Assembly (NCBI GenBank): GCA_026416755.1
Contig: JAOAEP010000069.1
Coordinates: 1 to 44,797, forward strand
Source of the DNA: a bacterium
Lineage (GTDB): Bacteria; Ratteibacteria; UBA8468; B48-G9; JAFGKM01
Length of the DNA stretch: 44,797 nt
Reading direction: 5' to 3'
Below, one piece after another: positions 8,418-44,797 of the stretch. Within the stretch, counting starts at the first letter, position 1. Each line of letters starts with the position of its first letter. The notes beneath the pieces are model-generated. The model did no database searches. It was not told where the DNA came from and worked only from the letters and a program-made list of their open reading frames with translations. The position numbers and the translations under genes are program-made.

Positions 8418-8441
8418 AATAAGTTAAAATAAGGAGAGTAA

Positions 8442-24179: not shown

Positions 24180-24195
24180 TTTCAATATATAGTAT
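24180..24195 (-). promoter_or_regulatory. candidate NrdR box (proximal)
   Basis: The gene-sense sequence is ATACTATATATTGAAA, versus the remembered consensus acaCwAtATaTwGtgt. The core CTATATATTG differs by 1 nt from the palindrome CAATATATTG. It abuts the nrdR start codon. Confidence 0.5.
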
Positions 24196-24211
24196 TTTAT
24201 AAAAAATTTCA

Positions 24212-24227
24212 CATCAATATATTGTAT
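24212..24227 (-). promoter_or_regulatory. candidate NrdR box (distal)
   Basis: The gene-sense sequence is ATACAATATATTGATG, containing the perfect 10-bp palindrome CAATATATTG (24215-24224). It lies exactly 32 bp from the proximal box, which is about three helical turns and typical of paired NrdR boxes. Confidence 0.55.
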
Positions 24228-26868: not shown

Positions 26869-28834
26869 TTTTCATTATCTTTAAAATTTCTTCAAAAATT
26901 ATTTTACTTCCTTCTTCATTAGGTAAATTCACATAAACAAATTCATTCTTTTTAAAAAATTTTTCTCCATTTTCAACTTCCGAAAAAATTTTGTATATAT
27001 CTAAAAAAATAAAACCTCTTTTTTCTGAAATTTTTCTTAGTTTTTCTCTATAAGGTTGAAAAGTTTCTAAATAAGGATAAGAAGGAAATGGTGAAGTCAA
27101 AATTATATTTGACGTTTTTTGAGACAAAAGCCAAAGCATTCCATCATAAACTTTTTCCCATTCATTTAATCTATGTCTTCTTAAAAGTGAGTTTAAAAAA
27201 GGGAAGAAAATAATAAAAGTACTATCATCAATTTGATTTAAAATGTTCTGTATAAATTTAAATTCATTTAAAAGATAATTTACATACTTTTCTTCGGATA
27301 TTTTAAAAATTTCTATTCTCTTTTCTTTATAAAAATCTTTCAACAGTTTATATAAATCTAATGGGAAATCTCCAATAATAACTATTTTAAAAAATTCTTT
27401 TTCTTTTGTCTTCATATTTGAATATTCAGGGATTTTAAAAATAATAAATTCATCACCTTTTTTAAAAAATATCCCATCTATTGAATACTCACTTTCTGTA
27501 AGTCCAACCATCTTTATAATTTTTTCTTCTATTTCTATATCATTAAAATAAATTTTTATTTTAACTTCATTTTGTTGGTCAATAGGTAAAGTCAAAGATT
27601 TGCCGTTTTCTTTCCCAGGTAGAATATATAATTCCTTTTCATTTTTTCCGCTTTTAATTAAACATTTAATTGGAACTGCTGATAAATTTTCAATTTTAAC
27701 TGGAATATACAAAATTTCATAACCATAAACAAAATTCTCAAAAGGAAGAATGTCAAAATTTACTTTAATTTCATTTATGTCTCCTAAAACTATTTTATGA
27801 GAAAATTCACCGTATTCCTTATTTTTCTCTGTTTTAAGTAAAATATTTATTTCTTTTTTTATATCTTCTAATTTAACTATAATTTTTTCTCCAGTATAAG
27901 TTTTCCCTTCAATTTCCCAAAAATATCTATCAGAAGAAGACAAAGTTGCATCAAGTTTTATATAAACAAATTCCATATTTTTAACCTTAAATGGACCTTC
28001 AATTTCATAATCAAAATATGAAGTTTTTTTAGAAATCAAATTTTCAACCTTTCTTAATTTTAATTTTACTGGAACTTCATTTATAGAGGTCATATCCCAA
28101 TATACTTTCCCTTTATCATTATAAAATCCAATCCCTTCTAAATTTCTTTCTCTAATTTTCAAAAGTGGAATTTCTATTTTTACCCACTTTCCCCTTTCAG
28201 GTAAATCACCAATTTTTTCTTTCTTTATACTTTTTATTTTTATATTATCTTTTCCAAAAGAAAAATAATAATGTCTTCTATATCTTGAAATAATTTCCAC
28301 CATAATTTCTTCAGTATTTTCATCTTCAATAAAAACATAAGTGATAACTTTATCTTCAGAAGTAATAGGGAACTGTTTTGGAAAACTAATTCTATGAAAT
28401 GAAAAACCAGCATTTCCTGTATGAGAAAAAATTCCATTTAATGGTTTTTCAACCCATACCCAGACTCCTGATTTTATTGAATTTGGCAATATGTAATCAT
28501 CAATTAAAAGTTCTCCTTTTTTAAATTTATTATACTCTTTATTTTTTTCACTATATCCAAGGAAAACTTTATAATTTATTGAATTGGTAGGTTTGAAAAT
28601 AATCTCCATTTCATTATTTAAAAAATCAACACCTAAAACTTCACATTCTTTCCCATTTTCATCTATAATTTTTATATCATTGTATTTTTCTTTTCCCACA
28701 ATAAATCTAAAGGAAGCAAGTTTTACAGTTTCAATTAAGTTTTTATTTTCACATGAAAGATTTATCATATATTTATATTCAGCAGTAAAAGAAAAAATCT
28801 GTAAGATATAAAAAATAAAGAATATTCTTTTCAT
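26846..28834 (-). CDS. hypothetical secreted protein with a C-terminal degenerate SGNH/GDSL-like domain
   Basis: 662 aa with a signal peptide (IFFIFYILQIFSFTA). The N-terminal 480 aa match no family I recognise. The C-terminal ~175 aa follow the SGNH block order but with substitutions (IIGDF instead of GDS, and VNLPNEEG instead of D..HPN..G). Confidence 0.55.
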   Translation of the reverse strand: MKRIFFIFYILQIFSFTAEYKYMINLSCENKNLIETVKLASFRFIVGKEKYNDIKIIDENGKECEVLGVDFLNNEMEIIFKPTNSINYKVFLGYSEKNKEYNKFKKGELLIDDYILPNSIKSGVWVWVEKPLNGIFSHTGNAGFSFHRISFPKQFPITSEDKVITYVFIEDENTEEIMVEIISRYRRHYYFSFGKDNIKIKSIKKEKIGDLPERGKWVKIEIPLLKIRERNLEGIGFYNDKGKVYWDMTSINEVPVKLKLRKVENLISKKTSYFDYEIEGPFKVKNMEFVYIKLDATLSSSDRYFWEIEGKTYTGEKIIVKLEDIKKEINILLKTEKNKEYGEFSHKIVLGDINEIKVNFDILPFENFVYGYEILYIPVKIENLSAVPIKCLIKSGKNEKELYILPGKENGKSLTLPIDQQNEVKIKIYFNDIEIEEKIIKMVGLTESEYSIDGIFFKKGDEFIIFKIPEYSNMKTKEKEFFKIVIIGDFPLDLYKLLKDFYKEKRIEIFKISEEKYVNYLLNEFKFIQNILNQIDDSTFIIFFPFLNSLLRRHRLNEWEKVYDGMLWLLSQKTSNIILTSPFPSYPYLETFQPYREKLRKISEKRGFIFLDIYKIFSEVENGEKFFKKNEFVYVNLPNEEGSKIIFEEILKIMKNEKSTNN

Positions 28835-31065
28835 TTTTGTCTTTTAATTTTTATAGCAATGTCCTTTTCAAAAGGAATAATAGGAATCAAAAGCCCATCT
28901 TTATTTTCAATTATAATTTCTTTAATAACTTCTCCCTTATATGTATCCCAAAATTCTACTTTATATATACCCTCATTCAAATTTTTAAGTATAAGTTGAG
29001 CATCTTCAATCTTTATTGGATTAATTCTTTTAATTTGACTATTAAATACCTTCTTATCATAAATCCAAAAAAATCCTTCGTCTCTATTCTGAATTCCCAC
29101 AAAATCAACATCCTTTCCCATAATCTTACCATCAGAAATTTGTAAAAATTTTCCCCTCCTATCTTCATTTTCCCAGAATTTTGATAGTGCTTTGTAATGA
29201 AAATATAAGTTAAAGTGTTCAATAAAAGGCCACCACCAGAAAAGAGCAACACCAAACATTGGCATCATTGAAGAAGACCAAATTCCTCCATGTAAATTAT
29301 CCTCAAGATAAACTCTATCTTTGCCAACGCCAAATTCATTTATCATCATTGGTTTACCATATCCCTTTCTTTTCATATAATAGTCCATTACACTATTTAC
29401 TATTAAACTATCATATGCATTCCCAACAAGTGATTCAAGTTCAGGTATAACCCAAACCATTGGATCATCAGGTCTTCTACAGTAATGAGTTGTTATTGCT
29501 CTTTTATAAGGGTCAATTGATTTTAAGTAAGGATACATAATTTTATGCCAATATCTCACTTTATCAGATGAATAAAATCCAGTTAAATCTACTTCATTCC
29601 AGAACTCCCAGAAAACTATATTTGGTGAATAACCCCATCTTGAAACAATATAATTCAATCTCTGTTTAAAATATTCAATCGCTTTTTCATTATCAAAAAA
29701 TTCGTCAGGTGATTTTAAAAAACCTCCATTTATTTCATTATAAGGATTGTCCCACCATTCTGCGTCAGGATGAATGCTAAATTGTCCATGATTAATTAAA
29801 GTTAAAACCATAAAAATTCCATACTTTTCAGCAATATCACAAATATAATCAAGTTTCCATGAATTTTCCAAACTATATTTCCCAAGATTTTTATAATGAG
29901 GGGCATAATTATAATTCCATTCAATCCCAACCCACCAGGCACCCATCCATACCCTTGCATAGTTTTCTCCATTTTCAGCCATTTTTTTAAAATATTTATC
30001 ATAAGCAAAAGTTCCAAGCCCCTTTTTATATGTAAATTCATAAGGATAGGCACTTCTTTCATCATCTGGAGACCTCAAAGTATGCCCTATTGGATAGAAA
30101 AATTTACCATTTGAAAAAGAAAGGTAATATTTATCATTTTTATCCCAATTAACAAAACCATTTCTATCACTTTCAACAACTTCAAAATTCCCTTTATATA
30201 TCTCCATTTCTTTTTCTTTTCCATGTAGTTTTATTTTATATTCATACAAACCAACTTCTTGAGGAGTAAATCTAATTTTCCATTCACTTTTACCATATGG
30301 AATTAATTTTTCTCCTTCTTCATAAAGTGTTCTTAAATAATCATGATAAAAAAAGGCAGATGTTTCAAATAAATTTCCAGACGGAGAAATGAAAATTCCT
30401 TTTAATTTTAAATCAGGATTAAAAGGGTTATTAAATAAATAAGAAACTTCAAATGTAATTTCAAACTTCTCATTTCTTCCTATTTTTTTTGAATTTTCTC
30501 TAAAATTATATATAAAAAATTTTTCTTCATTTTCTCCTTTAAAACCTTCAAAAGAATCAATGTATAATTCACCGTTATAACTATTCCAAAACCATATGAT
30601 TATCCCTATTTCAGTTATATTTTCTTTCACATATGAATCAAAAACTTTAAGATGAGAAACAGGTTGCCAGAAATTAGTATTTTCTTTTAGATTTAATATA
30701 ACTTTTTTTTCTTCGCCTCTTTTTAATTTAATTTTTTCTGTTTCAAACCAATTCCATTCATCATCTTTTATGTATACAATAAATTCACCATCAATTCCAT
30801 CTTCTTCTGGGATATAAATTCTGAATGATAAATAATCAAAATCTTTACAATTAAATCTTCCTTCATGAAAAATTTTTACAATTTTTAAGTTTCTAATTTC
30901 TGCACATAAAGAATATTCGCCAGTACTTGAATATTTTTTGGATGAATAAAGTTTTGAATTTTCATCTTCTATTTTCCAATTGTTTATACTATTTTCAAAA
31001 TCAAAAATTATTTCAGAAAAAAGAGAAATAACAAAAATAAAAGAACAAAAAATTAGTTTTTTCAT
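28831..31065 (-). CDS. secreted DUF5060 + GH5-like (clan GH-A) glycoside hydrolase
   Basis: 744 aa with a signal peptide. It has an NPF.P-type DUF5060-like beta-sandwich (NNPFNPDLKLKGIFISPSG...FFYHDY). The barrel follows, with ENYARVW, FWEFWNEVD (candidate acid/base NE) and MMINEFG (candidate nucleophile E). Confidence 0.7.
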   Translation of the reverse strand: MKKLIFCSFIFVISLFSEIIFDFENSINNWKIEDENSKLYSSKKYSSTGEYSLCAEIRNLKIVKIFHEGRFNCKDFDYLSFRIYIPEEDGIDGEFIVYIKDDEWNWFETEKIKLKRGEEKKVILNLKENTNFWQPVSHLKVFDSYVKENITEIGIIIWFWNSYNGELYIDSFEGFKGENEEKFFIYNFRENSKKIGRNEKFEITFEVSYLFNNPFNPDLKLKGIFISPSGNLFETSAFFYHDYLRTLYEEGEKLIPYGKSEWKIRFTPQEVGLYEYKIKLHGKEKEMEIYKGNFEVVESDRNGFVNWDKNDKYYLSFSNGKFFYPIGHTLRSPDDERSAYPYEFTYKKGLGTFAYDKYFKKMAENGENYARVWMGAWWVGIEWNYNYAPHYKNLGKYSLENSWKLDYICDIAEKYGIFMVLTLINHGQFSIHPDAEWWDNPYNEINGGFLKSPDEFFDNEKAIEYFKQRLNYIVSRWGYSPNIVFWEFWNEVDLTGFYSSDKVRYWHKIMYPYLKSIDPYKRAITTHYCRRPDDPMVWVIPELESLVGNAYDSLIVNSVMDYYMKRKGYGKPMMINEFGVGKDRVYLEDNLHGGIWSSSMMPMFGVALFWWWPFIEHFNLYFHYKALSKFWENEDRRGKFLQISDGKIMGKDVDFVGIQNRDEGFFWIYDKKVFNSQIKRINPIKIEDAQLILKNLNEGIYKVEFWDTYKGEVIKEIIIENKDGLLIPIIPFEKDIAIKIKRQK

Positions 31066-33338: not shown

Positions 33339-34127
33339 TTATCTACTTAGACGGTAAGTTAGAAGTATTGGCCTATTTTCTCTAAGAACTTCAATTGTTA
33401 CAATGTCGGTATTTGAGTTTTTAATTTGAGTATAAACTTTTAGTCCAGTAGCAACGCTATCAATTAATATCCCGTTAACTCTCCTTATTATATCTCCATT
33501 TCTCAAACCATATTGATAAGGTAAACTATTTTCAGGTAAATTTGAAATTTTAAAACCTTCCACTCTACCTTCTTTTACATTTGGTAATAAATTTAAGTTT
33601 TCAATAAGTTTTTGGTCATTTATAAGAGAATTAATTGTTTTATTAAAATCAACATTCATTGAAACTACTTCTTCTGGAAAAATAGGATTTTCTACTTTTG
33701 GTGAAGAAATAACAACCTTAGATGTTTCTTCTTTTGAAATCACTAATGGTGTATTAGTTGATTTATTTTCAAGATTAAGAGAGATATTTTTCCCATCATA
33801 TTCAAAAATAACTTTATCTTTTAAAATTTTTATAATTTTACTTTCGCCAACTTTCTCTTCTTCTTTATATATATTTTCATTATTTGTTTTTTTATCTTTT
33901 ATAATAGCAAAAGAATTGCCCTGGGGAAAATAAATAATACCAGTAATTTCTATAATTGTTTCAAGTGAAGGTAACGGAAGTGGTTTTAAAATATTTGTTG
34001 GTTCAGTTTTTGGCGTTGGAGGAGGTGGTAAAGGAGCAGTAAATATATTTCTTTTTAATATTATTGACTCTCTACCAAATACTGTATTAAGCACAACTAA
34101 AAGAAATATAAACTTTGCCCACCTCAT
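33339..34127 (-). CDS. GspC-like protein (N-terminal TM, Pro-rich linker, HR/PilP-like domain, C-terminal PDZ)
   Basis: 262 aa. Has a TM anchor, PLPPPPTPKTEP, IEITGIIYF..GNSFAIIKD......IYKEEEKVGESKIIKI..DKVIFEYDG (HR-like), and GLRNGDIIRRVNG..I.......L.......I.IEVLRENR...L.Y (PDZ). Confidence 0.55.
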   Translation of the reverse strand: MRWAKFIFLLVVLNTVFGRESIILKRNIFTAPLPPPPTPKTEPTNILKPLPLPSLETIIEITGIIYFPQGNSFAIIKDKKTNNENIYKEEEKVGESKIIKILKDKVIFEYDGKNISLNLENKSTNTPLVISKEETSKVVISSPKVENPIFPEEVVSMNVDFNKTINSLINDQKLIENLNLLPNVKEGRVEGFKISNLPENSLPYQYGLRNGDIIRRVNGILIDSVATGLKVYTQIKNSNTDIVTIEVLRENRPILLTYRLSR

Positions 34128-34132
34128 TTTTA

Positions 34133-37100
34133 TTATTTTACCCTTTTTATCAACAAAATTAAACCACTTATAAAGATAATAAAAGGTAAAATGTTTGTTA
34201 TGTATAAAATAACCAAAACTATAATAAAGTAAAGAGCAAATTTAACAGGAATTATAAATATTGAATGTTTCTTTAAAAATTCTGCCAAATTAGGAGAATG
34301 AGTATAATAAAATTTTATGAATAATTTACCAAATTTATTTTTTATCAAAAATCTATCCCTAAATTCTCTCAATATCCTTACTTGCCAACTATTTTCTCCA
34401 AAACAAGCACTTGCAATAAAACAACCTCCAGCAGTTTGGGTAGATGGAATCCCTGCAGTATCAATCCATATGTAAAAATATTTTGTCTGTTGGTCATAAC
34501 TTAAACCAGATGGAACAGTTTCTTTATTGGAAAAAGAAGCCAGTGGTCTTGCATACCAAGAATATCCAAATAAAGCATTCCTATGTTGTGCCCTCACTCT
34601 TATATACCACCTTGCATTTTCCCATAGAATATGTGTATCATAGATTATAATTTCACATAGACCTGTAAGATAATTATAAACTCTATCTGCAATTACCTGC
34701 AATTCTGTATCTGGTCTTGTTACATCATCCGGTTTTCTATTTTTCCAGAATTCTATATAATAATAACTTTCACTTTGAGTATTATCGCTCCATTTTATCA
34801 CAAGAGAATTCCAGCCACCATATGCTTGTAAATTTGTTGGATTCTCATTAAATGGAAAAGCAGTTGGAATCGCCCAAGAAGGATTTGAATCGCTTGACGC
34901 CTCATTTGTCTGTTGATTAACTGCTCTTATAACATAATAATAAGGTCTACTATCTGAATAGATAGGAGTATCAATATAAGTAGTTGCATCTGCTGGAACT
35001 ATTTTAATTGTAGTATAAGGTGGATTAGGATTACCTATTGTTGGATGCCTTCTTCTTATTTCAAAACCAGTATGAGTTGAAAATGATAATTGATCCCACC
35101 TCAAATTAACTCGTCTTTCTCCACCTGTGGTTTTAAGACCTGTTGGTGTCAATAATTGAGTTGGTAAATCTTCTAAAACCCAGTAAAGAGAGGTATTATC
35201 ACTAAGAAAAGGAGAACGATAACTATATAATTTTCCTGCTTTACTACTTACCTGAATACCAATAACTGCATTTGCTCCAAAATCATAACTTACATTCCCA
35301 AATTCTACATCTTTATAACTGAATAAAATATCTGATTTGTTTTCAAAAAATACAACCTGAAAAGTTACTCCATTTGTTCCTCCTACATTATAATGAGGGA
35401 CATTTCTCCATTCAATAACAAGTTTTCTATTTGGAGCATTTCCTAAAACAGCCCAGTAGACATTATTACTCCCTTGTGAAGGTAATAAATCATCTCTAAA
35501 AGGTGCTATTTGAATATTTAAGGATGCATCAGGAAGTCCATATAATGAATTTTGTGTCCAATAATAACTTTTTATATCATCAAAAAAACTTATAATTCCA
35601 TTAGAATCAATGTAAACCTCTGTAAAGCCAGTGTCATATCCTCCAAATTTTATTGGAAAAGGAGCCCTTATTTTTACAACCTCATTATCCCCTAAATTTA
35701 GATTTGTCTCATAACCAGTAATATCTTCCCATCCAAAGGCAGTAGGATAGTAATTGTAACTTTTTAAAAAATAACATTCAAAAGAATCATTATTTGGCAA
35801 AGTAAACTTCCTTTTTCCTACTGTCTGGGTAGTGTTGTCATAACTTCCTGAATAAACTCCATCATTACTCATAATATCAAAACCATTCCCATTATCATAA
35901 AGAGTAAATGTCTCTCCTGAATCAATATTCACAATAACATCTCCTGCACCTCTTTCATCAATTAAATTTAAAGCAGATATATCAAGTTTTTCTTTATAAT
36001 AACAACTAACTTTATCTCCAATTGGTCTTAATCTTGCCATAAGTGTTTTCCCTTTTGGAGATACAGCATCTAAAGCATTTATTCTTTTTCCTGTTATTGA
36101 AATATCTTTTAGAGAGGGGATATCATCTCCACTTGTCAATATCAAATTTTTTATTTTTATCCAGTCATATGTAGTAAATTTTGATTTTATCAAAGCAGCA
36201 AGTCCTGTAACAAAAGGAGCAGCCATACTTGTACCATCCATACTTCCGTAAGAATTGGTTGGTAAAGTACTGTATATACCTTTTCCAGGAGCACCAACAT
36301 GAACTTTAAATTTCCCATAATTTGTTCCACCCCCCAAAGTGGAGAAAATTGCTGGTTGGTCATTTATATCTGTTGCAAGAACTGTAATTACATTTGGTAG
36401 ATAAATTCCAGCAGGATGAACTGGATCATAATCTATATTACGAAGTCCATTACCTGCTGCTGTGATAAACAAAATACCTCTTTCCATCAATTTTTCTATT
36501 GCCTCTTCAAGTGCTTGCATTCTAACATAACCACCAAATGACGCATTCACAGCAATAATATTTTCTCCTTCATCTTTCTTTTTCAATATATACTCAATAC
36601 ATTCAATAATCCAGTCAACTGTTATAGTTCCGGAAGAAGTACCTACTTTTAAGGGCATAAGTCCTACTTTCCAGTTAACACCTGTTACACCAATTCCATT
36701 ATTACCAACTGCTCCTATAATTCCTGCAACATGAGTTCCATGTCCTCTATAAAGACCGCTAATAGGTTCAATAAATTCTGAAGGTGCTCCTCTTTGATAA
36801 CTACCTATATTTGCAATTGTAGGATTTATACCATAAAAATCATCAACATAACCATTTTTATCATCATCAATAGAATTATAGTTTATTGTATTGAATATTA
36901 GTTCCCCTTTATTTAGCCATAAATTACTATCAAGGTCTGGATGTTTCCTATCATTTCCTCCTGCCATAGGAGCAGGTGTATAATCAATTCCGGTATCAAG
37001 TATAGCAACTACAATTGATGTATCACCTACTGTTATATCCCATGCTTCTGGTGCTTTAATTTTAGTAAGTCCCCATTGTTGAGGGAAATTTGTATCATTT

Positions 37101-37414
37101 GGAGTTGCGAAGAATTTTAAAATATAGTTTGGCTCAGCGTATTCAATATCATTTTCTACTTTTAAACTCTTAATTTTATTTTCAACACTTATCCCATCTT
37201 TAATTTTTAAGAGATATAAATTTTGAACTACTCCAAGTACCTTTTCTATCTCAAGATTATATTTCTGACAAATTGAATTTACCGCTTGAGAATTTTTAAA
37301 CTTAACTATAATTTTATCTACAATATATTCTGTCTCTAATCTGCCTTTCTCCCATCTTTGTTGAGATAAAGATAAAAATGAAATAAATATAAGAAGAAGA
37401 AATATCTTTTTCAT
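34133..37414 (-). CDS. secreted S8 (subtilisin) family serine peptidase with I9-like propeptide, NIDO-like region, two FN3 domains and the shared CFIAS C-terminal anchor module
   Basis: 1093 aa with a signal peptide. The catalytic triad motifs are VAILDTGID (Asp140), HGTHVAG (His225) and GTSMAAP (Ser396). The tail from Cys998 reads CFIASACFGENSWQVRILREFRD...KFYYTHSP...hydrophobic...KRVK. An AAGGAGG SD lies upstream. Confidence 0.9.
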   Translation of the reverse strand: MKKIFLLLIFISFLSLSQQRWEKGRLETEYIVDKIIVKFKNSQAVNSICQKYNLEIEKVLGVVQNLYLLKIKDGISVENKIKSLKVENDIEYAEPNYILKFFATPNDTNFPQQWGLTKIKAPEAWDITVGDTSIVVAILDTGIDYTPAPMAGGNDRKHPDLDSNLWLNKGELIFNTINYNSIDDDKNGYVDDFYGINPTIANIGSYQRGAPSEFIEPISGLYRGHGTHVAGIIGAVGNNGIGVTGVNWKVGLMPLKVGTSSGTITVDWIIECIEYILKKKDEGENIIAVNASFGGYVRMQALEEAIEKLMERGILFITAAGNGLRNIDYDPVHPAGIYLPNVITVLATDINDQPAIFSTLGGGTNYGKFKVHVGAPGKGIYSTLPTNSYGSMDGTSMAAPFVTGLAALIKSKFTTYDWIKIKNLILTSGDDIPSLKDISITGKRINALDAVSPKGKTLMARLRPIGDKVSCYYKEKLDISALNLIDERGAGDVIVNIDSGETFTLYDNGNGFDIMSNDGVYSGSYDNTTQTVGKRKFTLPNNDSFECYFLKSYNYYPTAFGWEDITGYETNLNLGDNEVVKIRAPFPIKFGGYDTGFTEVYIDSNGIISFFDDIKSYYWTQNSLYGLPDASLNIQIAPFRDDLLPSQGSNNVYWAVLGNAPNRKLVIEWRNVPHYNVGGTNGVTFQVVFFENKSDILFSYKDVEFGNVSYDFGANAVIGIQVSSKAGKLYSYRSPFLSDNTSLYWVLEDLPTQLLTPTGLKTTGGERRVNLRWDQLSFSTHTGFEIRRRHPTIGNPNPPYTTIKIVPADATTYIDTPIYSDSRPYYYVIRAVNQQTNEASSDSNPSWAIPTAFPFNENPTNLQAYGGWNSLVIKWSDNTQSESYYYIEFWKNRKPDDVTRPDTELQVIADRVYNYLTGLCEIIIYDTHILWENARWYIRVRAQHRNALFGYSWYARPLASFSNKETVPSGLSYDQQTKYFYIWIDTAGIPSTQTAGGCFIASACFGENSWQVRILREFRDRFLIKNKFGKLFIKFYYTHSPNLAEFLKKHSIFIIPVKFALYFIIVLVILYITNILPFIIFISGLILLIKRVK
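34353..34429 (-). repeat. nucleotide-conserved core of the C-terminal anchor module, copy A (S8 peptidase)
   Basis: About 80 nt align with copies B and C at roughly 85-90% identity by eye. The identical 26-mer acttgccaactattttctccaaaaca lies at 34380-34405. Confidence 0.85.
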
Positions 37415-37543
37415 TGGTTTACCTCCTTATATACATACGTTTCTACTGTAAAAACTCTTTCTTAGCCTAATTCCCTTACAATTTTAACTGTTTCTCTAAA
37501 ACTATATTCTTTGTTAACATTTTTATTTTCTAACCTTTTTGTT

Positions 37544-40500
37544 TTATTTAACCCATTTTTTGCAATAATTGCTTTTTCTTTTCCATTTCCAGAATAAAGT
37601 TAAGAATATAAGAATTATAGAGATATAAATGAGAATTTTAGAAAGAGCGACACAAACTAAAATTATAATAAAATAAAGTAAAAACCTTGTAAAAAGAAGC
37701 ACCAGTTTATGGGTTCTCAAATATTCAGCAATATCTGGAGAAATTTTATAATAAAACTTTACAAACTTTTTACCAATATAATTTTTAATTAGAATTTTAT
37801 CTCTAAACTCTTTAAGTATCCTTACTTGCCAACTATTTTCTCCAAAACAGACACTTGCAATGAAACAACCACCTCCACCAGGCTCTGGAGGAGGTGGTGG
37901 TGTAATGGTTAATGTTGTAAAATATGTTGGGTCGCTCCATTCAGACCACATTCCATCTGAATCCTGATATCTAACCTGCCAGTAATATGTTTTCCCTTCT
38001 TGAAGGGATGCACTTACTAATATTGAAGTTACTGCACCTGCGTTGAGATTTTGCCAATAAGGAGAACTTGAAGAACCAGTACTTTCCCATAATCTCCATT
38101 GTGAATTACTCATAGTATCCCCATCTTGGTCATAAAATCCAGTTGCTACAAGTAAAGGAGTTAAACTTACACCTGTTGCTCCATTTACAGGATATAAATT
38201 TTCTGGTTTTCTTGGAGGATTTTGTGGTTTTGGCATTGTTGTAAAACTTGCTTCATTACTCCAGTTAGACCACGTACCCCACTGGTCTTGATACCTTACC
38301 TGCCAGTAATAAGTAGTAGAATATAAAAGAATTCCAGAAGGGACAGAAATTGATGTTGTAGTAGTTTCAGCCTGCCAAATATATGTAGAACTTCCACTTT
38401 GTCTAATTCTCCATTGTGCTTTTAAAAAACTATCTCCATCAGGGTCACTAAAAGCAGAACCTGTCAAAGTTGGAGTTAATGTAATACCTACTGCTCCACT
38501 GGTCGGTGATTGACCTGTTGGCGTTAAAGGAGCACTATTTGTTCTTGTTGTAAAACTTGTTTCATCACTCCAATCAGACCAACCACCATTTACATCTTTA
38601 TATCTAACATGCCAGAAGTATTTTGTATTAAAACTTAATCTACCAGAAGGAACCTGATGGGAAGTAACTGCTCCTATTTCACCACTATCATAAACAGGAT
38701 TATTATAAGTTGAATTTTCTAATCTAATCTGCCATTGAGAACCTGCAAAGTTAACATTTGTTGGATGAGAATAATTAGATGCTTGCAAAGTAGGTATTAT
38801 AGAAACACCAGTTGCATTGTTTGGTGGTAGTAGATTTGTTGGTTTATTTGGTCTTGTTGTAGTTAATGTTATTTCATTTGTATAGTTAGAGTATTGCCTC
38901 CCTGAAACAATATCTCTATAACCTCTTACTCTATATGAATAAGATGTATTTTCTGTAAGACCAGCCCCATTTTCATCATCTATATATGTAGTAATATCTC
39001 TTCCGACCGTTCCTATCTCCACAAAATTACCACTCCCTATTTTTCTTTCTATTATAAATCCATCTTCTTCTGGATTCTCAGAATTATCAGTCCAGTTTAA
39101 TACAATGCGCCACTTCCCATTTAAATATTCAGCATAACCAGTTAAATTTGTTGGATCTTGTAATTGTCCTGTACTTGTTGTTACATTCACTATATTAGAC
39201 CATGTTGAGTAAGTAGGAGGGGTTGTAATAAATGCTCTTACTCTGTAATAATAAGTTGTATCAGGAGCAAGCCCATTTCCACTATTATCATCTGTAAATG
39301 TTGTTATATCTCTACCGACTTGTCCTATTGTCTGCCATGTTCCAGTTGTTCCTATTCTTCTCTGTATTTCAAAGCCATCTTCATCTGGATTTTCTGAATT
39401 ATCAAGCCAGTTTAAAACAACCTGCCATTTTCCATTTACAAATTGGGGAGTTGCTGATATAATCTGTGGCGCATTTAATACAATTGGTTGCCCAATTATA
39501 ATTGCATTTGTTCCTACTAAATATTCTCCTGATGTCCCCTGGTCAAACTTTATTCTATCACCGGCAAAGCCTAAAGGAACGGATAAATCATTTCTAATTT
39601 CAACTCTAAAGGTCTCTCCCGTAACTGCATTTTCAGAAGTCCTTAAAATAATATAATAATCGTCTCCTGAATTAGAACCAGTATCATCATTGGGGATAGC
39701 ATAAACACTATCAGGCAAAGTTAAAACAATCTTATTACCTGAAAAACTTATTGATTTAAGATTAATTGGAAGGTCATCAATATCCCAACCAGAATTTATT
39801 CCACTTTCTTTAAATAATGCAATTCCACTTAAACTTCCATCTGTTGTTAACTGTTTTAGATTATATAAGTTTCCTGTATAATAAATCACAATTTCCTTTA
39901 AATATCTACCTCCGTCTGTCCCATCTCTTTTACCATCAAATAAATTAATTCCAATTGCAGGACAATCATAGGTTGGTGGAATAACATAATTGTTACTTGG
40001 AATTAGGTATGTAAGTTTAACATTTAAATTTCCAGTTAATGTATGGGTTTTTAAATTTATATTTGCGAAAGAATAACCAGAAGAAAAAACAAGTCCATTT
40101 GAAGGTAGAGAAATAGAAAATTTATCTCCATATAATAGATTATTACTTGTCCTTATTGCAACAAAAAATTCATTTCCAGTATTTGTTGTAGGTAATGAAA
40201 TATTTTGAGGAAAAACGCCATCTAAATACCAACCAAGACAGTTTCTTCCTCTTCCTACAAAATAAATATCATCTCCATCTGTATACTTTCCATCCTGGTC
40301 TTCATCATAAAATACAAAACCAAATGCTCCTTGGTGTAATTTTTCTCCAAATGTTCCTGATGAAGGAGTTGTTCCAACTATAACTTTATCAGTTTGTGAA
40401 TTAAATATACCGTCATCTTCATTGTCAAGCCATAAACAATCTTCCAAACTCCATATACTATCATTATTAGCATCATACCAGTAAACTCTATCATCCCAAT

Positions 40501-43500
40501 TAAAATAAGAAAGAACTTTCCCTTGCCAATTTATTATCTGTGTCTTATATCCTTGACCAGAAGTTGTAGTTCCATCTCCATCAACAAATCCATCAACATA
40601 ATCTGACTTCCAACTTGACCAACTAACGGGAATTAAAGTATCTGCTCTCCAATCAAAAATATCATTATTATTTGTATCTCGCCATATTGAAACACCACTT
40701 AAAATATTATTTGTTAAAGGAGCAATTATTTCAGAAAAAGGGGTAGTGTCAGGGAAAATTCCTTCTTCTGGATTGAAATAAACTCTTATTTTTTGAAGTT
40801 GATTTGTTCCTGTTGAATGGTCCCATGCACTTATTCCTATTACTCCAATTGGGTCACTTGTAGCATCTATAATTTGACCTGAAGTTGTTAGGTCTGTAAA
40901 AATTGTTGCAGTTACTGTTGTATTTGTTAAGGTATATGTTATTACTCTTTTATAAGTTATTCCACCTGCATCTCCAGTAAAAGTCAAGGTATTTTCACCA
41001 ACAAGATTACTTCCCCAAAGCAATATATGAAACCTATCACCTGGGTCCATGTTTTCATTTGGTTGAATTACAAGAAAATAATCAGGTCCAGCATTCTGTC
41101 CAACATCATTTGTTGGAATATAACCAACAGATGTATGATTTGTAAAATTAGGAGGAGGGTCTCCAAATTCTAATCTTACTCTAAATCTTCCTTGTGGGTC
41201 ATCTGCTGCTCTTGGTAATAAATAGGGTAATTTTGTCATCCACACTCTTTTATCAAGCGGGTCAAATATTCCATTTCTATTTGTATCCTTATATAAAGCA
41301 ATTCCACATCCACCATCAGGATCATTTGGATCTGAATTTGGTTTAACAAGTTCTGAAAAATCTAAAGTAGGAGGATTGTTGTTATCAATTATTATTAAAC
41401 TCATAGAACTAAAAGAAATATTTTTACCAGGAGGAGCAACAAGATTTATTCCAATTACTGGTGTCTTTGTAAATCTATTAATTGATTGTTCAGAATAAGT
41501 TAAATTTGTAAAGAAAGTTGGAACTGTCGCAGGGAAAGTAAAAGTTTCAATTGGCTCATATATTCCATCTCTATTATTATCAGGGAAAATCCTTGCCCAA
41601 TAACCATTTGTAAAAAGTATATCTTCCCATGGATAATTATTTATTATTGAAGGTCTATCATTATATTTTGTTAAACCAATTGCTGCTCTTACACTCATTC
41701 CATAGTCAATCCCTCTTTCAAAAGTATTATTTGATTTATATGCTGTCTCAGGGACACTAATCCCTCTTGGTTTAATACATATAAATAAATCAAATCCACG
41801 ATTTTCTTGTCTTCCTGGATAATCCGTTCCTCTTATAAAATCATCATTGGGAAGAGGTATAGGATTTTTCGGCTTTAAAACTACAAAATATCTCTTATCA
41901 TCATCATTTGGATTTGCAGGGTCATCATTTGTAGGAGACCATTTTGTTCCATCTGAGTTATACCATTCAAGAGAACTTGCATCAAGAGGAACAAAAGTAT
42001 CTGAAATTGTAACTCTATGAATACTGGAAAGCATATCATTTTCAGTAATTGTTCTACTATCAGGAAGTCCAAGAGTTCCACCTGTTTTATTATCAAGCCA
42101 TAAACTTACACCAGAGTCCTGGTCATCACTTAAAGGCATCAATTTATTTGGTTTAAATCCATTTTCTCCTTTAAACCAGACCCTTATCCATTGAAGTGCC
42201 TCATTTTGTGCAAAAGGTCCCCAACTATCTGTCATATTAATGTGAAAAATTGGAATTGGAACTCCATCTGCTTCAATAGGTCCATCTATTAGATTTGGTT
42301 TTATATCAAAAGCAATCCTTACATCTTTTACCTTATCTCTTGTTCTCGTTAAAGTCGGTGAACGATAAATACTCGGGTCAGGACTTTCTCCAATAGGTCT
42401 TGTTACAACAATGCCATCATCATATACAGAAGGATCTATATAAATTTTAAAATCAGAACCATACCAGGGTCTATTTGTAACCCAACCATGGCTTGGATCA
42501 GTAGCAATAACAACAAAAAAGTCAACAAGCCCATCAGCGGTTTGATCAAGATTAATCCCTGAAAAATTAAAAGTAACTTTCCATCTATTATTTCCCTCAG
42601 GTGAAGGAGGAAGGGGGTCAATCTGCATATGAGGAGTCCCAGGTATCACATTTGAAGCAAGTATTCTTATATCATTTGCAGGATTAAAATAACCATCTCC
42701 GTTATCCCTGTAAATTGCTATGTTTGAATAAGGAGAAAGTTGATGAGAAGCAAGCATACCTGGGTCAAAATTTCCAGGAATTCCTGTATCTTCTATAATA
42801 ACAGTTACTCTTGAAAGTTGCTCATTATCATTTCCTGAATATGTACTTCTTCCTTTTAAACTAAATCCAATAACTCTATAAGGAATACACATACCACATA
42901 ATTCAGGAACTGCCAGAGTAAAATCAATATCTTGTGCAACAAATTGAAATAATGGATGGTCCTGTTTATATGCTCTATAATTATAAAGTGGACCATAAAG
43001 GTAATGACGAAAAACTCCAACATTTGAACTTATTGTAGGATACCCATTTATTTCAGTTAAACTACTTGGGTCATAGGAATCACTTCTCATAGGAACTAAA
43101 TCAACAACTCTTGAATCACATATAATCGTATTTGTACCTATAGACAGAGGCCAACCAACTCTTACTATAAACTTATTTCTATAATCATAACCTCCAGGCA
43201 TATCTCCTGAAATTTTATCAGAGGTAAAAATAACAACCCATAGGTCTGGTCCTTGCGTCCCATTTTGAGCATCGTCAGAACCATATATTGAAAAATTTAT
43301 TGGAATATCAAAAGATAAACTGCCTAATTGACTTGGGTTAACAGAACCAATTTCATAATCCGCTGGGTCAAAAACTCCTTTCGCTCCTACATCCCTATAA
43401 ATTGCAACTTTCCTAAAATCTTCAGGTAATATGGGATGATTAGCTCCTGGAGAAGTATAAATGGATACATAAACACTATTAAGAACATCTCCTGGTTGAG

Positions 43501-43687
43501 GCCAGCCAGCAGAAGTATTTGCTGAAAGATTTAAACCAATAACAGCAGTAGGACCGCTCATTGGAAGAATTGCTTGATTGGGTTGTGTTAAATCTACTCC
43601 TGACCTTACTGCCCATGCACCAAAACAAATTTGTGGTATAAAAAGAATAAAAAATAAACAAAGGAAACCCTTTCTTTTATCTTTCAT
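37544..43687 (-). CDS. giant (2047 aa) repeat-rich secreted surface protein with two FN3 domains, three ~100-aa tandem repeats and the shared CFIAS C-terminal anchor module
   Basis: A single uninterrupted ORF with a signal peptide (FLCLFFILFIPQICFGA) and a GAGGAGG SD. The domain layout was read directly from the translation. The tail from Cys1941 reads CFIASVCFGENSWQVRILKEFRD...KFYYKISP...hydrophobic...KRK. Confidence 0.85.
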   Translation of the reverse strand: MKDKRKGFLCLFFILFIPQICFGAWAVRSGVDLTQPNQAILPMSGPTAVIGLNLSANTSAGWPQPGDVLNSVYVSIYTSPGANHPILPEDFRKVAIYRDVGAKGVFDPADYEIGSVNPSQLGSLSFDIPINFSIYGSDDAQNGTQGPDLWVVIFTSDKISGDMPGGYDYRNKFIVRVGWPLSIGTNTIICDSRVVDLVPMRSDSYDPSSLTEINGYPTISSNVGVFRHYLYGPLYNYRAYKQDHPLFQFVAQDIDFTLAVPELCGMCIPYRVIGFSLKGRSTYSGNDNEQLSRVTVIIEDTGIPGNFDPGMLASHQLSPYSNIAIYRDNGDGYFNPANDIRILASNVIPGTPHMQIDPLPPSPEGNNRWKVTFNFSGINLDQTADGLVDFFVVIATDPSHGWVTNRPWYGSDFKIYIDPSVYDDGIVVTRPIGESPDPSIYRSPTLTRTRDKVKDVRIAFDIKPNLIDGPIEADGVPIPIFHINMTDSWGPFAQNEALQWIRVWFKGENGFKPNKLMPLSDDQDSGVSLWLDNKTGGTLGLPDSRTITENDMLSSIHRVTISDTFVPLDASSLEWYNSDGTKWSPTNDDPANPNDDDKRYFVVLKPKNPIPLPNDDFIRGTDYPGRQENRGFDLFICIKPRGISVPETAYKSNNTFERGIDYGMSVRAAIGLTKYNDRPSIINNYPWEDILFTNGYWARIFPDNNRDGIYEPIETFTFPATVPTFFTNLTYSEQSINRFTKTPVIGINLVAPPGKNISFSSMSLIIIDNNNPPTLDFSELVKPNSDPNDPDGGCGIALYKDTNRNGIFDPLDKRVWMTKLPYLLPRAADDPQGRFRVRLEFGDPPPNFTNHTSVGYIPTNDVGQNAGPDYFLVIQPNENMDPGDRFHILLWGSNLVGENTLTFTGDAGGITYKRVITYTLTNTTVTATIFTDLTTSGQIIDATSDPIGVIGISAWDHSTGTNQLQKIRVYFNPEEGIFPDTTPFSEIIAPLTNNILSGVSIWRDTNNNDIFDWRADTLIPVSWSSWKSDYVDGFVDGDGTTTSGQGYKTQIINWQGKVLSYFNWDDRVYWYDANNDSIWSLEDCLWLDNEDDGIFNSQTDKVIVGTTPSSGTFGEKLHQGAFGFVFYDEDQDGKYTDGDDIYFVGRGRNCLGWYLDGVFPQNISLPTTNTGNEFFVAIRTSNNLLYGDKFSISLPSNGLVFSSGYSFANINLKTHTLTGNLNVKLTYLIPSNNYVIPPTYDCPAIGINLFDGKRDGTDGGRYLKEIVIYYTGNLYNLKQLTTDGSLSGIALFKESGINSGWDIDDLPINLKSISFSGNKIVLTLPDSVYAIPNDDTGSNSGDDYYIILRTSENAVTGETFRVEIRNDLSVPLGFAGDRIKFDQGTSGEYLVGTNAIIIGQPIVLNAPQIISATPQFVNGKWQVVLNWLDNSENPDEDGFEIQRRIGTTGTWQTIGQVGRDITTFTDDNSGNGLAPDTTYYYRVRAFITTPPTYSTWSNIVNVTTSTGQLQDPTNLTGYAEYLNGKWRIVLNWTDNSENPEEDGFIIERKIGSGNFVEIGTVGRDITTYIDDENGAGLTENTSYSYRVRGYRDIVSGRQYSNYTNEITLTTTRPNKPTNLLPPNNATGVSIIPTLQASNYSHPTNVNFAGSQWQIRLENSTYNNPVYDSGEIGAVTSHQVPSGRLSFNTKYFWHVRYKDVNGGWSDWSDETSFTTRTNSAPLTPTGQSPTSGAVGITLTPTLTGSAFSDPDGDSFLKAQWRIRQSGSSTYIWQAETTTTSISVPSGILLYSTTYYWQVRYQDQWGTWSNWSNEASFTTMPKPQNPPRKPENLYPVNGATGVSLTPLLVATGFYDQDGDTMSNSQWRLWESTGSSSSPYWQNLNAGAVTSILVSASLQEGKTYYWQVRYQDSDGMWSEWSDPTYFTTLTITPPPPPEPGGGGCFIASVCFGENSWQVRILKEFRDKILIKNYIGKKFVKFYYKISPDIAEYLRTHKLVLLFTRFLLYFIIILVCVALSKILIYISIILIFLTLFWKWKRKSNYCKKWVK
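37797..37876 (-). repeat. nucleotide-conserved core of the C-terminal anchor module, copy B (giant protein)
   Basis: Same block as copy A. The identical 26-mer lies at 37824-37849. Confidence 0.85.
37913..38854 (-). repeat. three tandem ~100-aa coding repeats inside the giant gene
   Basis: Residues 1612-1714, 1715-1817 and 1818-1925 each run P..P.N..P..GA.GV...P.L.........D......QW.I...............S..V.......T.Y.W.VRY.D..G.WS.WS....FTT. Confidence 0.8.
38855..39475 (-). repeat. two tandem FN3-like coding repeats inside the giant gene
   Basis: Residues ~1405-1503 and ~1509-1611 share NGKW(Q/R)(V/I)VLNW.DNSENP(D/E)EDGF.I.R.IG......IG.VGRDITT..DD..G.GL...T.Y.YRVR. Confidence 0.8.
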
Positions 43688-43738
43688 TTTACCTCCTCAT
43701 TCTTTTATTTTTATTATATTTAGACAACTTTTTTAATT

Positions 43739-44797
43739 TTATAGTTTAGCGAGAATTCTTTTTTGTAAAAAATAAGAAAGAAAGACCAAGCAAATTAATA
43801 TTAATAATATCCCATGGTGAACTATAAAATAAGAGACAAAAATTAAAGGATAAAGGATTGCCTTTAAAAGTGTTTTAATTACAATTTTATCCTTTATATA
43901 TTCTTTAACATAAGGAGAATATTTATAATAGAATTTAACAAACTTTCTACCTAATTCAAATTTCATTAAAACTCTATCTCTAAACTCTTTCAATATTTTA
44001 ACTTGCCAACTATTTTCTCCAAAACATACACTTGCAATAAAACACCCTCCTCCACCTTCTTCTACTGGTATGGTTTCTCTATATTCAATTAAATAACTTG
44101 GTGGATTTGTACAGTCAACTTCTCCATAATCATTAAATGCACTTACTTTATAATACCACATTCCAACTGAAGGTGGAGTATCCACTGCTGTCCTTGCATT
44201 CGGGTCATAAATTATTTTAACATGACTACCCCAATTAGATGGGTCTAAACTTCTATAAATCTTAAATCCTCTTAATGTCCCTGTTGTTGGTACATAATTC
44301 CAGTAGATGTTAATATTATTTATTCCAAGTTCACACCTTAAATTTGTTGGTACATTTGGTAAATCAAGAGTTGTTGTGGGTCTTAAAATATATGTTTTTG
44401 ATGCAGAAGTGGCAATTATCTCAATTATTCCATCATTATTTATGTCTGAAACAATAATTTTCTTTATATTATCTTGTAGATTATAAGACATAATTTCATT
44501 TAAGGTATTGTTAAGGATCTTAACATATGTCCCATAACTCACTATAATTTCTTTCCCTGCTTTGCCATCAAAATCAACACATGCCCATACTTTTCCTATA
44601 CCTTGTTTTTCAAGAGTAAACTGATTCATATCTATAAGATAAAGATTTTCATAAAGATCAGATATTAAAAGTTCTTTAACATTATCGTTATCTATATCAC
44701 TTAAAGCATATTTAACCTCTTGAGTATAAACAGTTAAAGAAGATTGGGCTAAAACATTTCCATTTTTGGGGTCAAATCTATAAATTGTCAATGGAAC
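43739..44797 (-). CDS. FG-GAP/VCBS-like repeat + FN3 protein with the shared CFIAS C-terminal anchor module (5' end outside the window)
   Basis: The frame is open to the window edge, and the track M at 44791 is an internal TTG. DIDNDNVKELL, VDFDGKAGKEII and SDINNDGIIEII are FG-GAP-like Ca loops. An FN3 domain follows (PTNL...YYKVSAFN). The tail reads GGGGCFIASVCFGENSWQVKILKEFRD...KFYYKYSP...hydrophobic...KR. Confidence 0.8.
   Translation of the reverse strand, partial: VPLTIYRFDPKNGNVLAQSSLTVYTQEVKYALSDIDNDNVKELLISDLYENLYLIDMNQFTLEKQGIGKVWACVDFDGKAGKEIIVSYGTYVKILNNTLNEIMSYNLQDNIKKIIVSDINNDGIIEIIATSASKTYILRPTTTLDLPNVPTNLRCELGINNINIYWNYVPTTGTLRGFKIYRSLDPSNWGSHVKIIYDPNARTAVDTPPSVGMWYYKVSAFNDYGEVDCTNPPSYLIEYRETIPVEEGGGGCFIASVCFGENSWQVKILKEFRDRVLMKFELGRKFVKFYYKYSPYVKEYIKDKIVIKTLLKAILYPLIFVSYFIVHHGILLILICLVFLSYFLQKRILAKL
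43974..44053 (-). repeat. nucleotide-conserved core of the C-terminal anchor module, copy C (FG-GAP/FN3 protein)
   Basis: Same block as copy A. The identical 26-mer lies at 44001-44026. Confidence 0.85.

Follow-up and report, generated by a model that had tools for sequence, protein, structure and literature searches.

The CFI-box-CTERM tail of three adjacent exported proteins in a Ratteibacteria contig: a candidate envelope-anchoring unit

C-terminal modules that recur on otherwise unrelated exported proteins are known from several systems. In GlyGly-CTERM proteins, which include the Vibrio serine protease VesB and other exoproteins of diderm hosts, the C-terminus is made up of a Gly-rich motif, a transmembrane (TM) helix and a basic tail (PMC6219818, PMC12369372). 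VesB is dependent on a type II secretion system (T2SS) (PMC6219818), and its handling requires the PDZ domain of EpsC (PMC12369372). The PEP-CTERM/exosortase and PGF-CTERM/archaeosortase systems also combine a C-terminal TM helix with a cluster of Arg and Lys residues, on many paralogs and diverse surface proteins. In the type IX secretion system (T9SS), a folded C-terminal domain (CTD) of ≈70–80 residues is found on many unrelated secreted or surface proteins, including C25 and S8 proteases, and Hedgehog/Hint proteins carry Gly-Gly-Cys-Phe at the point where the passenger meets the C-terminal module. Here, we analyze a tail of ≈100 residues that has points of likeness to all of these. It is shared by three adjacent exported proteins encoded at one end of contig JAOAEP010000069.1 (assembly GCA_026416755.1), a 44,797-nt stretch of DNA from a bacterium of the Ratteibacteria lineage. 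The whole stretch is referred to below as the window. The tail matches NF041770, the NCBIfam model for the CFI-box-CTERM domain.

The closest resemblance is to the NF041770 family itself: the window tails have its Gly run, CFIA(T/S) box, FRD and YY..SP motifs, C-terminal position, TM helix and basic end, and their scores are about twice the cutoff of the model. The likeness to GlyGly-CTERM proteins extends to the neighboring genes, in that a GspC-type PDZ protein takes part in handling the tagged protease in that system and a GspC-like gene is operon-linked to the tailed genes here. However, the GlyGly-CTERM Gly motif abuts the TM helix without a folded domain, whereas the CFI Gly run lies ≈75–80 residues upstream of the TM helix, with a helical domain of ≈70 residues in between, and the GlyGly-CTERM model in NCBIfam did not match the window tails. 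Some CFI genes are found in exosortase/exopolysaccharide (EPS) loci, but CFI tails have neither a PEP nor a PGF motif, their folded domain lies ≈55 residues upstream of the TM helix, and some members have no TM helix at all, even beside exosortases. No PEP-CTERM model was among the NCBIfam or Pfam matches of the tails at E ≤ 1. An initial annotation of the window, made from the sequence without database searches, had pointed out that the motif is far upstream of the TM segment, unlike PEP-CTERM or LPXTG signals, and we agree. The T9SS CTD is a β-sandwich without a TM helix that is removed by PorU, whereas the CFI domain is modeled as all-helical, is usually followed by a TM helix, and occurs in phyla without a T9SS. 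In contrast to Hedgehog/Hint modules, the predicted CFI helical bundle has neither the Hint fold nor the conserved TxxH or Asp blocks. Nor does the tail contain a lipoprotein lipobox of the kind processed by Lgt and Lsp, since its Cys is located ≈100 residues from the C-terminus, after GGGG and hundreds of passenger residues.

Three window proteins with a CFI-box-CTERM tail

The three genes lie side by side on the minus strand. The first (34133..37414) encodes an S8 (subtilase) peptidase of 1093 residues, for which the open reading frame (ORF) list and the Pfam and NF041770 matches define an N-terminal signal-like segment, a fervidolysin-type prodomain (Fervidolysin_NPro, 42.7 bits), a catalytic domain with D/H/S motifs (Peptidase_S8, PF00082, 150.7 bits against a gathering score of 21.8) and the CFI-box-CTERM tail. 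The DTGID, HGTHVAG and GTSMAAP motifs of the catalytic triad are visible in the translation. The CFI-box core (residues 998–1063; 34226..34423, minus strand) matches positions 1–67 of the 69-position NF041770 profile with 72.9 bits and is preceded by GG at 34424–34429. Hydropathy predicts a single TM helix, ILPFIIFISGLILLI (residues 1075–1089; 34148..34192, minus strand), followed by KRVK; its topology is assigned by analogy with fusion proteins of the same subfamily, described below. In the interval between the protease domain and the tail, residues 503–529 and 661–702 gave borderline matches to "choice-of-anchor X" (26 bits, cutoff 25) and to the nidogen-like NIDO domain (26.4 bits, cutoff 25).

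The second gene (37544..43687, minus strand) encodes an exported repeat protein of 2047 residues, with FN3/Ig-like repeats near its C-terminus (Pfam Ig_Rha78A_N and Pur_ac_phosph_N) and a tail that scored 68.8 bits against NF041770. Its CFI-box core (residues 1941–2007; 37667..37867, minus strand), delimited by the NF041770 match and included in the AlphaFold model described below, follows GGGG at 37868–37879. The predicted single TM helix, ILIYISIILIFLTLFW (residues 2018–2033; 37589..37636, minus strand), which is followed by KWKRK, was located by hydropathy and lies inside helix 92–120 of the model. The third gene (43739..>44797, minus strand) is cut by the end of the window, and the ORF list contains only the C-terminal part (at least 350 residues) of an FG-GAP/β-propeller-like protein, recognized from weak FG-GAP matches. 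Its core (residues 250–317 of the listed ORF; 43841..44044, minus strand) scored 72.2 bits against NF041770 and is preceded by GGGG at 44045–44056, and a single TM helix, ILLILICLVFLSYFL (43766..43810, minus strand), is predicted by hydropathy ahead of QKRILAKL. The two complete proteins begin with a strongly hydrophobic, signal-peptide-like segment. In the three tails, hydropathy windows of >2.0 are followed by KRVK, KWKRK or QKR, and the residues at the junction before the TM helix are TN, SK and HHG.

From the first Cys to the end, the tails measure 96 (S8), 107 (2047-residue protein) and 101 (FG-GAP) residues. Their alignment runs from GG or GGGG through CFIAS(A/V)CFGENSWQV, (R/K)IL(R/K)EFRD and G..F(I/V)KFYY..SP to a hydrophobic stretch and a basic end, and reproduced the lengths and the order of motifs given in the initial annotation. 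The S8 and FG-GAP tails are 55% and 48% identical, respectively, to the tail of the 2047-residue protein. BLASTP linked the three proteins through their tails only, with tail-versus-tail E-values of 1e-22 to 1e-28 and no match outside the tails, which bears out the original view of homologous tails on otherwise unrelated proteins. Exactly three copies of the tail were found in the window by a six-frame motif search. At the DNA level, the three tails are only ≈70% identical; a recent duplication or gene conversion of the tails is therefore ruled out.

When searched in isolation, the three tails scored 77.9, 74.8 and 75.6 bits against NF041770 (CFI_box_CTERM), a "domain"-type NCBIfam model with a curated cutoff of 40 bits, and covered the entire 69-position profile; the NCBI label "CFI-box-CTERM" had thus been given correctly in the initial annotation. 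All three tails agree with the model in score, in C-terminal position, in the Cys-Phe-Ile that follows a Gly run, and in the hydrophobic and basic end, and relatives already carry the NCBI name "CFI-box-CTERM domain-containing protein". On the basis of sequence, the three window proteins are members of a catalogued, uncharacterized CFI-box-CTERM family, and within it of a subfamily with two Cys residues. A full-text literature search with the family name, the accession and the motif returned no relevant paper on CFI-box-CTERM, in keeping with the earlier statement that no function or enzyme had been assigned; the NF041770 entry consists of a name only, without a recorded function, mechanism or enzyme, and Pfam has no model that matches the tail. 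The module is already catalogued, and the window alone adds little beyond annotation. What is added here is the topology derived from natural fusions, the separation of a folded core from an optional TM helix, and three candidate partners: a GspC-like PDZ protein, the exosortase/EPS loci and a fused β-barrel.

An exhaustive search of 1.84 billion representative proteins with a profile of the tail returned 26,643 protein clusters at E ≤ 1e-3, of which 15,309 reached E ≤ 1e-10, with the match almost always located at the extreme C-terminus of proteins 130–4045 residues in length. A scan of one genome per species confirmed at least 544 loci, distributed over Omnitrophota, Nitrospirota, Desulfobacterota, Geobacter relatives, Gammaproteobacteria, Chloroflexota/Dehalococcoidia, Spirochaetota, Nitrospinae and one metagenome-assembled genome (MAG) of Dependentiae (Vermiphilus). 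The best match in these species genomes came from Omnitrophota (54% identity), and the core domain is ≈40–50% identical across phyla. The profile search and the paralog count, both proposed with the initial annotation, show that the tail is not confined to the three paralogs of the window: several CFI paralogs per genome and per locus are found elsewhere. No CFI relatives were found in the viral contigs searched.

In the following, L-numbers denote the CFI loci that were fetched (≈80–87 loci with 92 CFI ORFs) and P-numbers denote metagenome proteins. Family-wide residue counts refer to 339 members, a sample that is biased to the top-scoring matches, and column statistics refer to 242 tails. 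One of the loci, L082 (JAWBNO010000003.1; 30% GC), is labelled Aenigmatarchaeota and has its CFI-box gene beside prepilin N-methyl/DUF1559 (SBP_bac_10) and LacI genes. This contig is probably misbinned bacterial DNA, similar to that of the Planctomycetes–Verrucomicrobia–Chlamydiae (PVC) group or Omnitrophota, and archaeal membership in the family is doubtful at least in this case.

A hydrophobic, signal-peptide-like N-terminal segment was present in 62 of 77 full-length CFI ORFs. The passengers identified by a Pfam scan of 71 CFI proteins included InlB-type B-repeats (12 proteins), Peptidase_S8 and FN3 (8 each), HYDIN/ASH Ig domains (7), PKD (6), DUF11 (5), Peptidase_C25 and GDSL lipases (4 each) and M6 peptidase (2). 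This is the set that sorted surface proteins would be expected to carry, and the tail is supported as a dedicated C-terminal tag of exported proteins that are otherwise unrelated. Nitrospirota, Trichlorobacter and other lineages also encode S8-CFI proteins (L043, L004, L045, L031, L076 and L018), with 28–42% identity in the catalytic region. The presence of a protease among the tagged neighbors had suggested co-localized processing. We considered the S8 protease as the enzyme that processes the tails and rejected it: it is one of many passengers, and in the syntenic locus L001, where both of the other proteins and the GspC-like gene are present, there is no S8 gene.

Conserved residues, fold and topology of the tail

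The family consensus starts with GGGG-CFIATAAYGS, in which the Gly run is 90–95% conserved. The invariant or nearly invariant positions are C-F-I-A, T/S-A-A-Y/F-G, V..L-R-x-F-R-D, L-L, G, F-V, Y-Y, S-P and A..I. Helix 4 of the model described below has the pattern L-R-x-x-T-R-x-A-L-T-P-V-V...Y-A-V-(K/E)-Y-P, with conserved R/K, T and P residues, and is followed by a poorly conserved hydrophobic stretch of 16–20 residues and then by R-R-(R/K). The Y-P pair directly before the TM helix is 71% and 92% conserved. The window subfamily departs from the family consensus in having a more hydrophobic helix 4 and no Y-P junction. The first Cys is found in all 339 members, with no Ser or Thr substitute. 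The second Cys, six residues after the first (CFIASxC), had also been taken to be invariant, but it is present in only 26 of the 339 members; its carriers are the window tails, L001, L027, L056 and some metagenome proteins. Judging from the motif, it is the mark of a subfamily (CFIASxCFGENSWQ versus CFIATAAYGSYLDPH elsewhere).

The tail of the 2047-residue protein was modeled with AlphaFold2 from a 62-sequence alignment, as the initial annotation had proposed. The model is all-helical and confident, with a mean predicted local distance difference test (pLDDT) score of 91.1 and a predicted template modeling (pTM) score of 0.66. If the Cys is numbered 15, the helices comprise residues 16–22, 27–40, 44–66, 68–89 and 92–120. 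No relative of the tail was found in the PDB, either by a profile sequence search or by a Foldseek search with the model. That the Cys, R-D, Y-Y and S-P residues are strictly invariant suggests that the domain carries out specific chemistry or binding at the membrane surface. Since four helices precede the TM helix in the model, the N-terminal Cys should be at the membrane-proximal end of the domain.

A TM helix is present, by a strict criterion, in 299 of the 339 family members. The net charge of the 15 residues that follow the last hydrophobic helix has a mean of +3.7, with values of +2 or more in 94% of the members; this is a positive-inside signature. In a number of natural fusions (L007, L008, L017, L056, P0003, P0004, P0005, P0045, P0100, P0130 and P0151), the CFI domain is followed by the TM helix and a basic loop. 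Next come a stretch that resembles a signal peptide and contains an AXA site and, after it, either another exported domain or an entire second CFI protein. Three of the fusions (L056, P0045 and P0151) belong to the Cys+6 subfamily of the window itself. Because this order works in no other way than with a single span from outside to inside, the tail most likely consists of a conserved juxtamembrane helix and one TM helix, with the N-terminus outside and the C-terminus inside. The 40–45 hydrophobic residues had been interpreted as two TM helices; this was rejected, as the polar and charged conservation of helix 4, the charge of the basic tail and the natural fusions all conflict with it.

In P0003, P0004 and P0005, a single ORF contains two complete CFI-tagged proteins arranged head to tail, with the first TM helix followed by the signal-peptide-like segment of the second protein. 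These double proteins may be natural polyproteins or may result from read-through between adjacent genes.

Ten of the 92 locus ORFs have no TM helix and stop ≈77–92 residues past the Cys (≤82 in eight of them), right after helix 4. These are L080, L002_4709, L025_1654, L047, Dehalococcoidia L016, L033 (two), L050 (two) and L062. TM-less copies are located at L002:4709–6526, L025:1654–3516, L080:7703–10234 and 966–2912, L047:8252–10291, and L087:4740–6959 and 7431–8078, and those of Dehalococcoidia share the conserved ending ...VEATGDxWRN. The TM-less L002_4709 and L025_1654 are full-length orthologs of the TM-bearing L009_356, and each is found directly upstream of an orthologous TM-bearing CFI protein of ≈1200 residues. 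In L087, one TM-bearing and two TM-less CFI proteins are arranged in tandem, and only TM-less copies are found in the Dehalococcoidia loci L033 and L050 and in the Omnitrophota locus L080. Because TM-less members exist, the folded core presumably has a function of its own, apart from the TM helix. What retains the TM-less copies may be lipid, a modified Cys or a TM-bearing CFI partner.

A possible role in envelope anchoring and its alternatives

We propose that CFI-box-CTERM is a C-terminal unit for anchoring or sorting proteins in the cell envelope. Taken as a whole, with the mechanism included, we consider this explanation about evenly poised between right and wrong. The module would consist, in order, of a flexible Gly run, a four-helix domain of ≈70 residues that starts from the invariant Cys (CFIA[T/S]...FRD...YY..SP...R..L.P), usually one stop-transfer TM helix, and a basic cytoplasmic tail. 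Upon Sec export through the N-terminal signal peptide, the TM helix would arrest in the cytoplasmic membrane with the N-terminus out and the C-terminus in (type I topology). The passengers (Ig/FN3 repeats, S8 protease and propeller) would be displayed on the Gly tether, with a small helical domain beneath it that lies on the membrane's outer face. Within this scheme, the makeup of the module and the anchoring of Sec-exported passengers in a type I topology are strongly supported. Beyond anchoring, the invariant Cys and the Arg and Tyr residues may bind covalently or tightly to lipid or to a second CFI domain, which would explain how TM-less members stay attached beside TM-bearing ones. By analogy with VesB, the operon-linked GspC-like PDZ protein may dock the cargo for a T2SS-style passage to the surface, in a host that probably bears lipopolysaccharide (LPS).

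The GspC-like gene (33339..34127, minus strand) starts 5 nt past the stop codon of the S8-CFI gene and encodes a predicted inner-membrane protein of 262 residues, with an N-terminal TM helix, a Pro-rich stretch and a PDZ domain (weak PDZ and T2SSC matches in Pfam). The protein matched NF041515 (GspC_delta) over profile positions 60–309 of 311 with E = 6.5e-30 and 104.9 bits (cutoff 150), and TIGR01713 with 64.1 bits (cutoff 101.6). From these matches it is clearly a GspC homolog, and we refer to it as "GspC-like" because the scores are below the equivalog cutoffs. GspC-like homologs directly adjoin CFI genes at L001:18441–19223, L002:10897–11673, L009:5677–6387 and L084:8920–9909. In L084 (52% GC), the gene is split into ORFs of 224 and 91 residues, and in L025 a prepilin-type gene takes the position held elsewhere by the GspC-like gene.

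Several observations weigh against the proposed explanation. The GspC-like neighbor is present in 5 of ≈87 loci, including the window, in three gene arrangements, and its score is under the NCBIfam GspC cutoffs. Neither the window nor the regions that flank L001 and L002 contain a gspD, gspE, gspF or gspG gene nearby, and these flanking regions have no further T2SS genes. In VesB, the PDZ-dependent signal is in the Ig fold and not in the C-terminal tag (PMC12369372). The placement of the Cys relative to the membrane follows solely from the even number of helices in the model. Finally, a two-helix membrane hairpin is the less likely but still a conceivable arrangement for the three window proteins, because their helix 4 is unusually hydrophobic.

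Alternatively, the tail could be a cleavable sorting signal, in which case an exosortase-family or sortase-like enzyme would cut near the K/E-Y-P or the Gly-Cys junction, remove the TM helix and join the protein by a covalent bond to lipid or polysaccharide. The tripartite appearance of the tail (motif, TM helix and Arg/Lys cluster), the conserved Y-P of the family consensus, the many paralogs per genome and locus, the passengers typical of sorted surface proteins and the "choice-of-anchor X" domain detected in the S8 protein are all consistent with this possibility. So is the presence of exosortase/PEP-CTERM-system genes within 10 kb of CFI genes in 6 of ≈87 loci (L051:1014–1919, L080:11162–12646, L047:13451–15945, L006:3990–6059, L071:7582–9642 and L087:9679–16275), which by our own rough estimate exceeds a chance expectation of about one. 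Exosortases are found in L047, L051, L080 and L087, and PrsK without an exosortase in L006 (540 bits) and L071 (525 bits). In addition, L080 has EpsI and an EPS sugar transferase, L047 a PrsK-like kinase, and L087 PrsK-like and PrsR-like genes and a PEP-CTERM protein, while L081 is flanked by EPS genes.

However, the CFI proteins adjacent to exosortases are TM-less in L047, in L080 and in two of three cases in L087, and therefore cannot be exosortase substrates. Neither PEP-CTERM nor any other known sorting-signal model matches the tails, and the Y-P junction is missing from those of the window. The window contains no sortase-like enzyme, exosortase, rhomboid or CPBP-type gene, and no rhombosortase was found near any CFI locus. 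When 995 ORFs from 80 loci and the window were clustered by BLASTP, no universal partner emerged; the only large neighbor cluster consisted of generic histidine kinases and response regulators (21 loci). When 60 polytopic neighbor ORFs were clustered with phmmer, PrsK-type kinases (5 loci) and exosortases (3 loci) came out, again without a universal family, and no recurrent polytopic enzyme was found across the 80 neighborhoods. A folded domain of 70 residues that is conserved to this degree across phyla also far exceeds the needs of a recognition motif. We therefore consider a cleavable signal possible but unlikely.

Another possibility is that the tail is an oligomerization stalk. In this case, the CFI domains of neighboring gene products would pair, possibly through a Cys disulfide or a metal site, and the protease, the giant adhesin-like protein and the propeller would form a complex on one or a few TM anchors. 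Tandem CFI genes are indeed frequent (2–3 copies in 10 of 81 loci), TM-less members are found beside TM-bearing ones in L002, L025 and L087, and the TM helix can be lost within an ortholog. A stalk would need no lineage-specific partner, which fits the very wide phyletic spread, and tails on unrelated passengers in one genome have remained 48–55% identical despite the divergence of their DNA. On the other hand, the three loci that have TM-less copies only (L033, L050 and L080) are at variance with pairing to a TM-bearing partner. Extracytoplasmic disulfides are, on general grounds, less expected where many of the hosts are strict anaerobes, and the invariant Arg, Asp, Tyr-Tyr and Ser-Pro residues are explained no better than by the other hypotheses. 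We regard the stalk as a tentative alternative, doubtful on balance.

A more specific form of the anchoring proposal is that the Cys is covalently linked to lipid or to another CFI domain, and that diderms possess a sorting route of their own, in which a GspC-like adaptor and a PF13557-type barrel would carry large adhesin-like proteins, as well as proteases, out of the inner membrane and onto the surface. We think that this is decidedly unlikely. The barrel in question is a predicted outer-membrane β-barrel of ≈260 residues, which ends in Phe and gave weak PF13557 and DUF3187 matches. In L007:1–2409, L008:2–2065, L017:7622–11155, L056:2–2467, P0100 and P0130, an internal signal peptide connects it to the CFI tail, and the order is passenger, CFI domain, TM helix, basic loop, signal peptide and barrel; in L030:1746–2699, it is encoded by a separate adjacent gene. 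Altogether, a PF13557-type barrel is fused to or beside CFI proteins in at least 5 of 80 loci.

Self-processing at the Gly-Cys junction would proceed by an N-to-S acyl shift, with the thioester resolved by lipid or water, so that the passenger is lipidated or released without a partner enzyme. The cleavage site of Hedgehog, between G and CF, resembles GGGG-CF, and the complete conservation of the Cys, the conserved Gly run before it and the lack of a universal partner enzyme at the loci are in line with such chemistry, as is the presence of the module in reduced genomes such as the Dependentiae/Vermiphilus MAG. However, the model is all-helical rather than of the Hint β fold, and there is no Hint or intein match in Pfam. 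The sole His near the Cys (DPH) is only 66% conserved and is missing from the window tails. Ser or Thr never replaces the Cys in the sample of top-scoring matches, although such replacement is common for acyl-shift nucleophiles, and there is no known precedent for this chemistry in a small helical bundle. Self-processing is thus very improbable. The notion that the shared tail is a mere local duplication of a generic membrane anchor, suggested by the adjacency of the three copies, is refuted by the 26,643 clusters, dozens of passenger types, many phyla, the curated NCBIfam model and the DNA identity of only ≈70%, and can be dismissed.

Predicted surface proteins that bear the tag number in the tens of thousands. 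Among them are adhesin-like giants, lipases and S8 and C25 proteases, and the hosts belong to uncultured anaerobic and subsurface phyla. A decision between a plain anchor, an assembly stalk and a processed signal would show how the hosts, including the ultra-small, possibly predatory Omnitrophota, build their cell surface, and knowing the role of the tag would improve localization calls in metagenome annotation. Large Omnitrophota proteins with a signal peptide and a TM helix, flanked by T2SS or pilus genes, are described in two preprints (one of them bioRxiv 10.1101/2023.11.21.568195), neither of which mentions the CFI tag.

Genomic setting and the remainder of the window

Synteny with the window is seen in locus L001, which comes from a hot-spring MAG of Omnitrophota. 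The FG-GAP protein of the window is 37% identical over 350 residues to its ortholog L001_7397_10315 (972 residues), and L001 encodes two relatives of the 2047-residue protein (44–49% identity) and a GspC-like protein with 48% identity to that of the window. The α/β hydrolase at 25153–25935 of the window has a counterpart with 66% identity. The S8 gene, a TPR gene, the DUF5060 gene and the gene for a 662-residue protein are not present in L001. Judging from this comparison, the window probably belongs to a related lineage of Omnitrophota.

From the S8 gene down to a GT9 gene, the window genes are spaced by ≤5 nt or overlap, and therefore appear to form an operon. The product of the GT9 gene, a heptosyltransferase, suggests the presence of LPS and hence of an outer membrane. 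The same tightly packed operon includes, at 26846–31065 (minus strand), the genes for a 744-residue protein that has only DUF5060 and mannanase-GBD matches and for the 662-residue protein, which has no family match.

The GC content of the window is 28%, and Rfam, tRNA and promoter/terminator scans of the region yielded nothing of note. The remainder of the window consists of housekeeping genes. Elsewhere in it are two ribonucleotide reductase systems, at 6357–9455 (plus strand) and 20952–24212 (minus strand): an ATP-cone Ribonuc_red_lgC protein with an adjacent radical-SAM gene, and an anaerobic NrdD with an NrdG-like activase and NrdR. At 16583–17884 (minus strand), a 433-residue fusion protein combines an orotidine-5′-monophosphate (OMP)-decarboxylase/HUMPS-type domain with an RraA-like aldolase domain.

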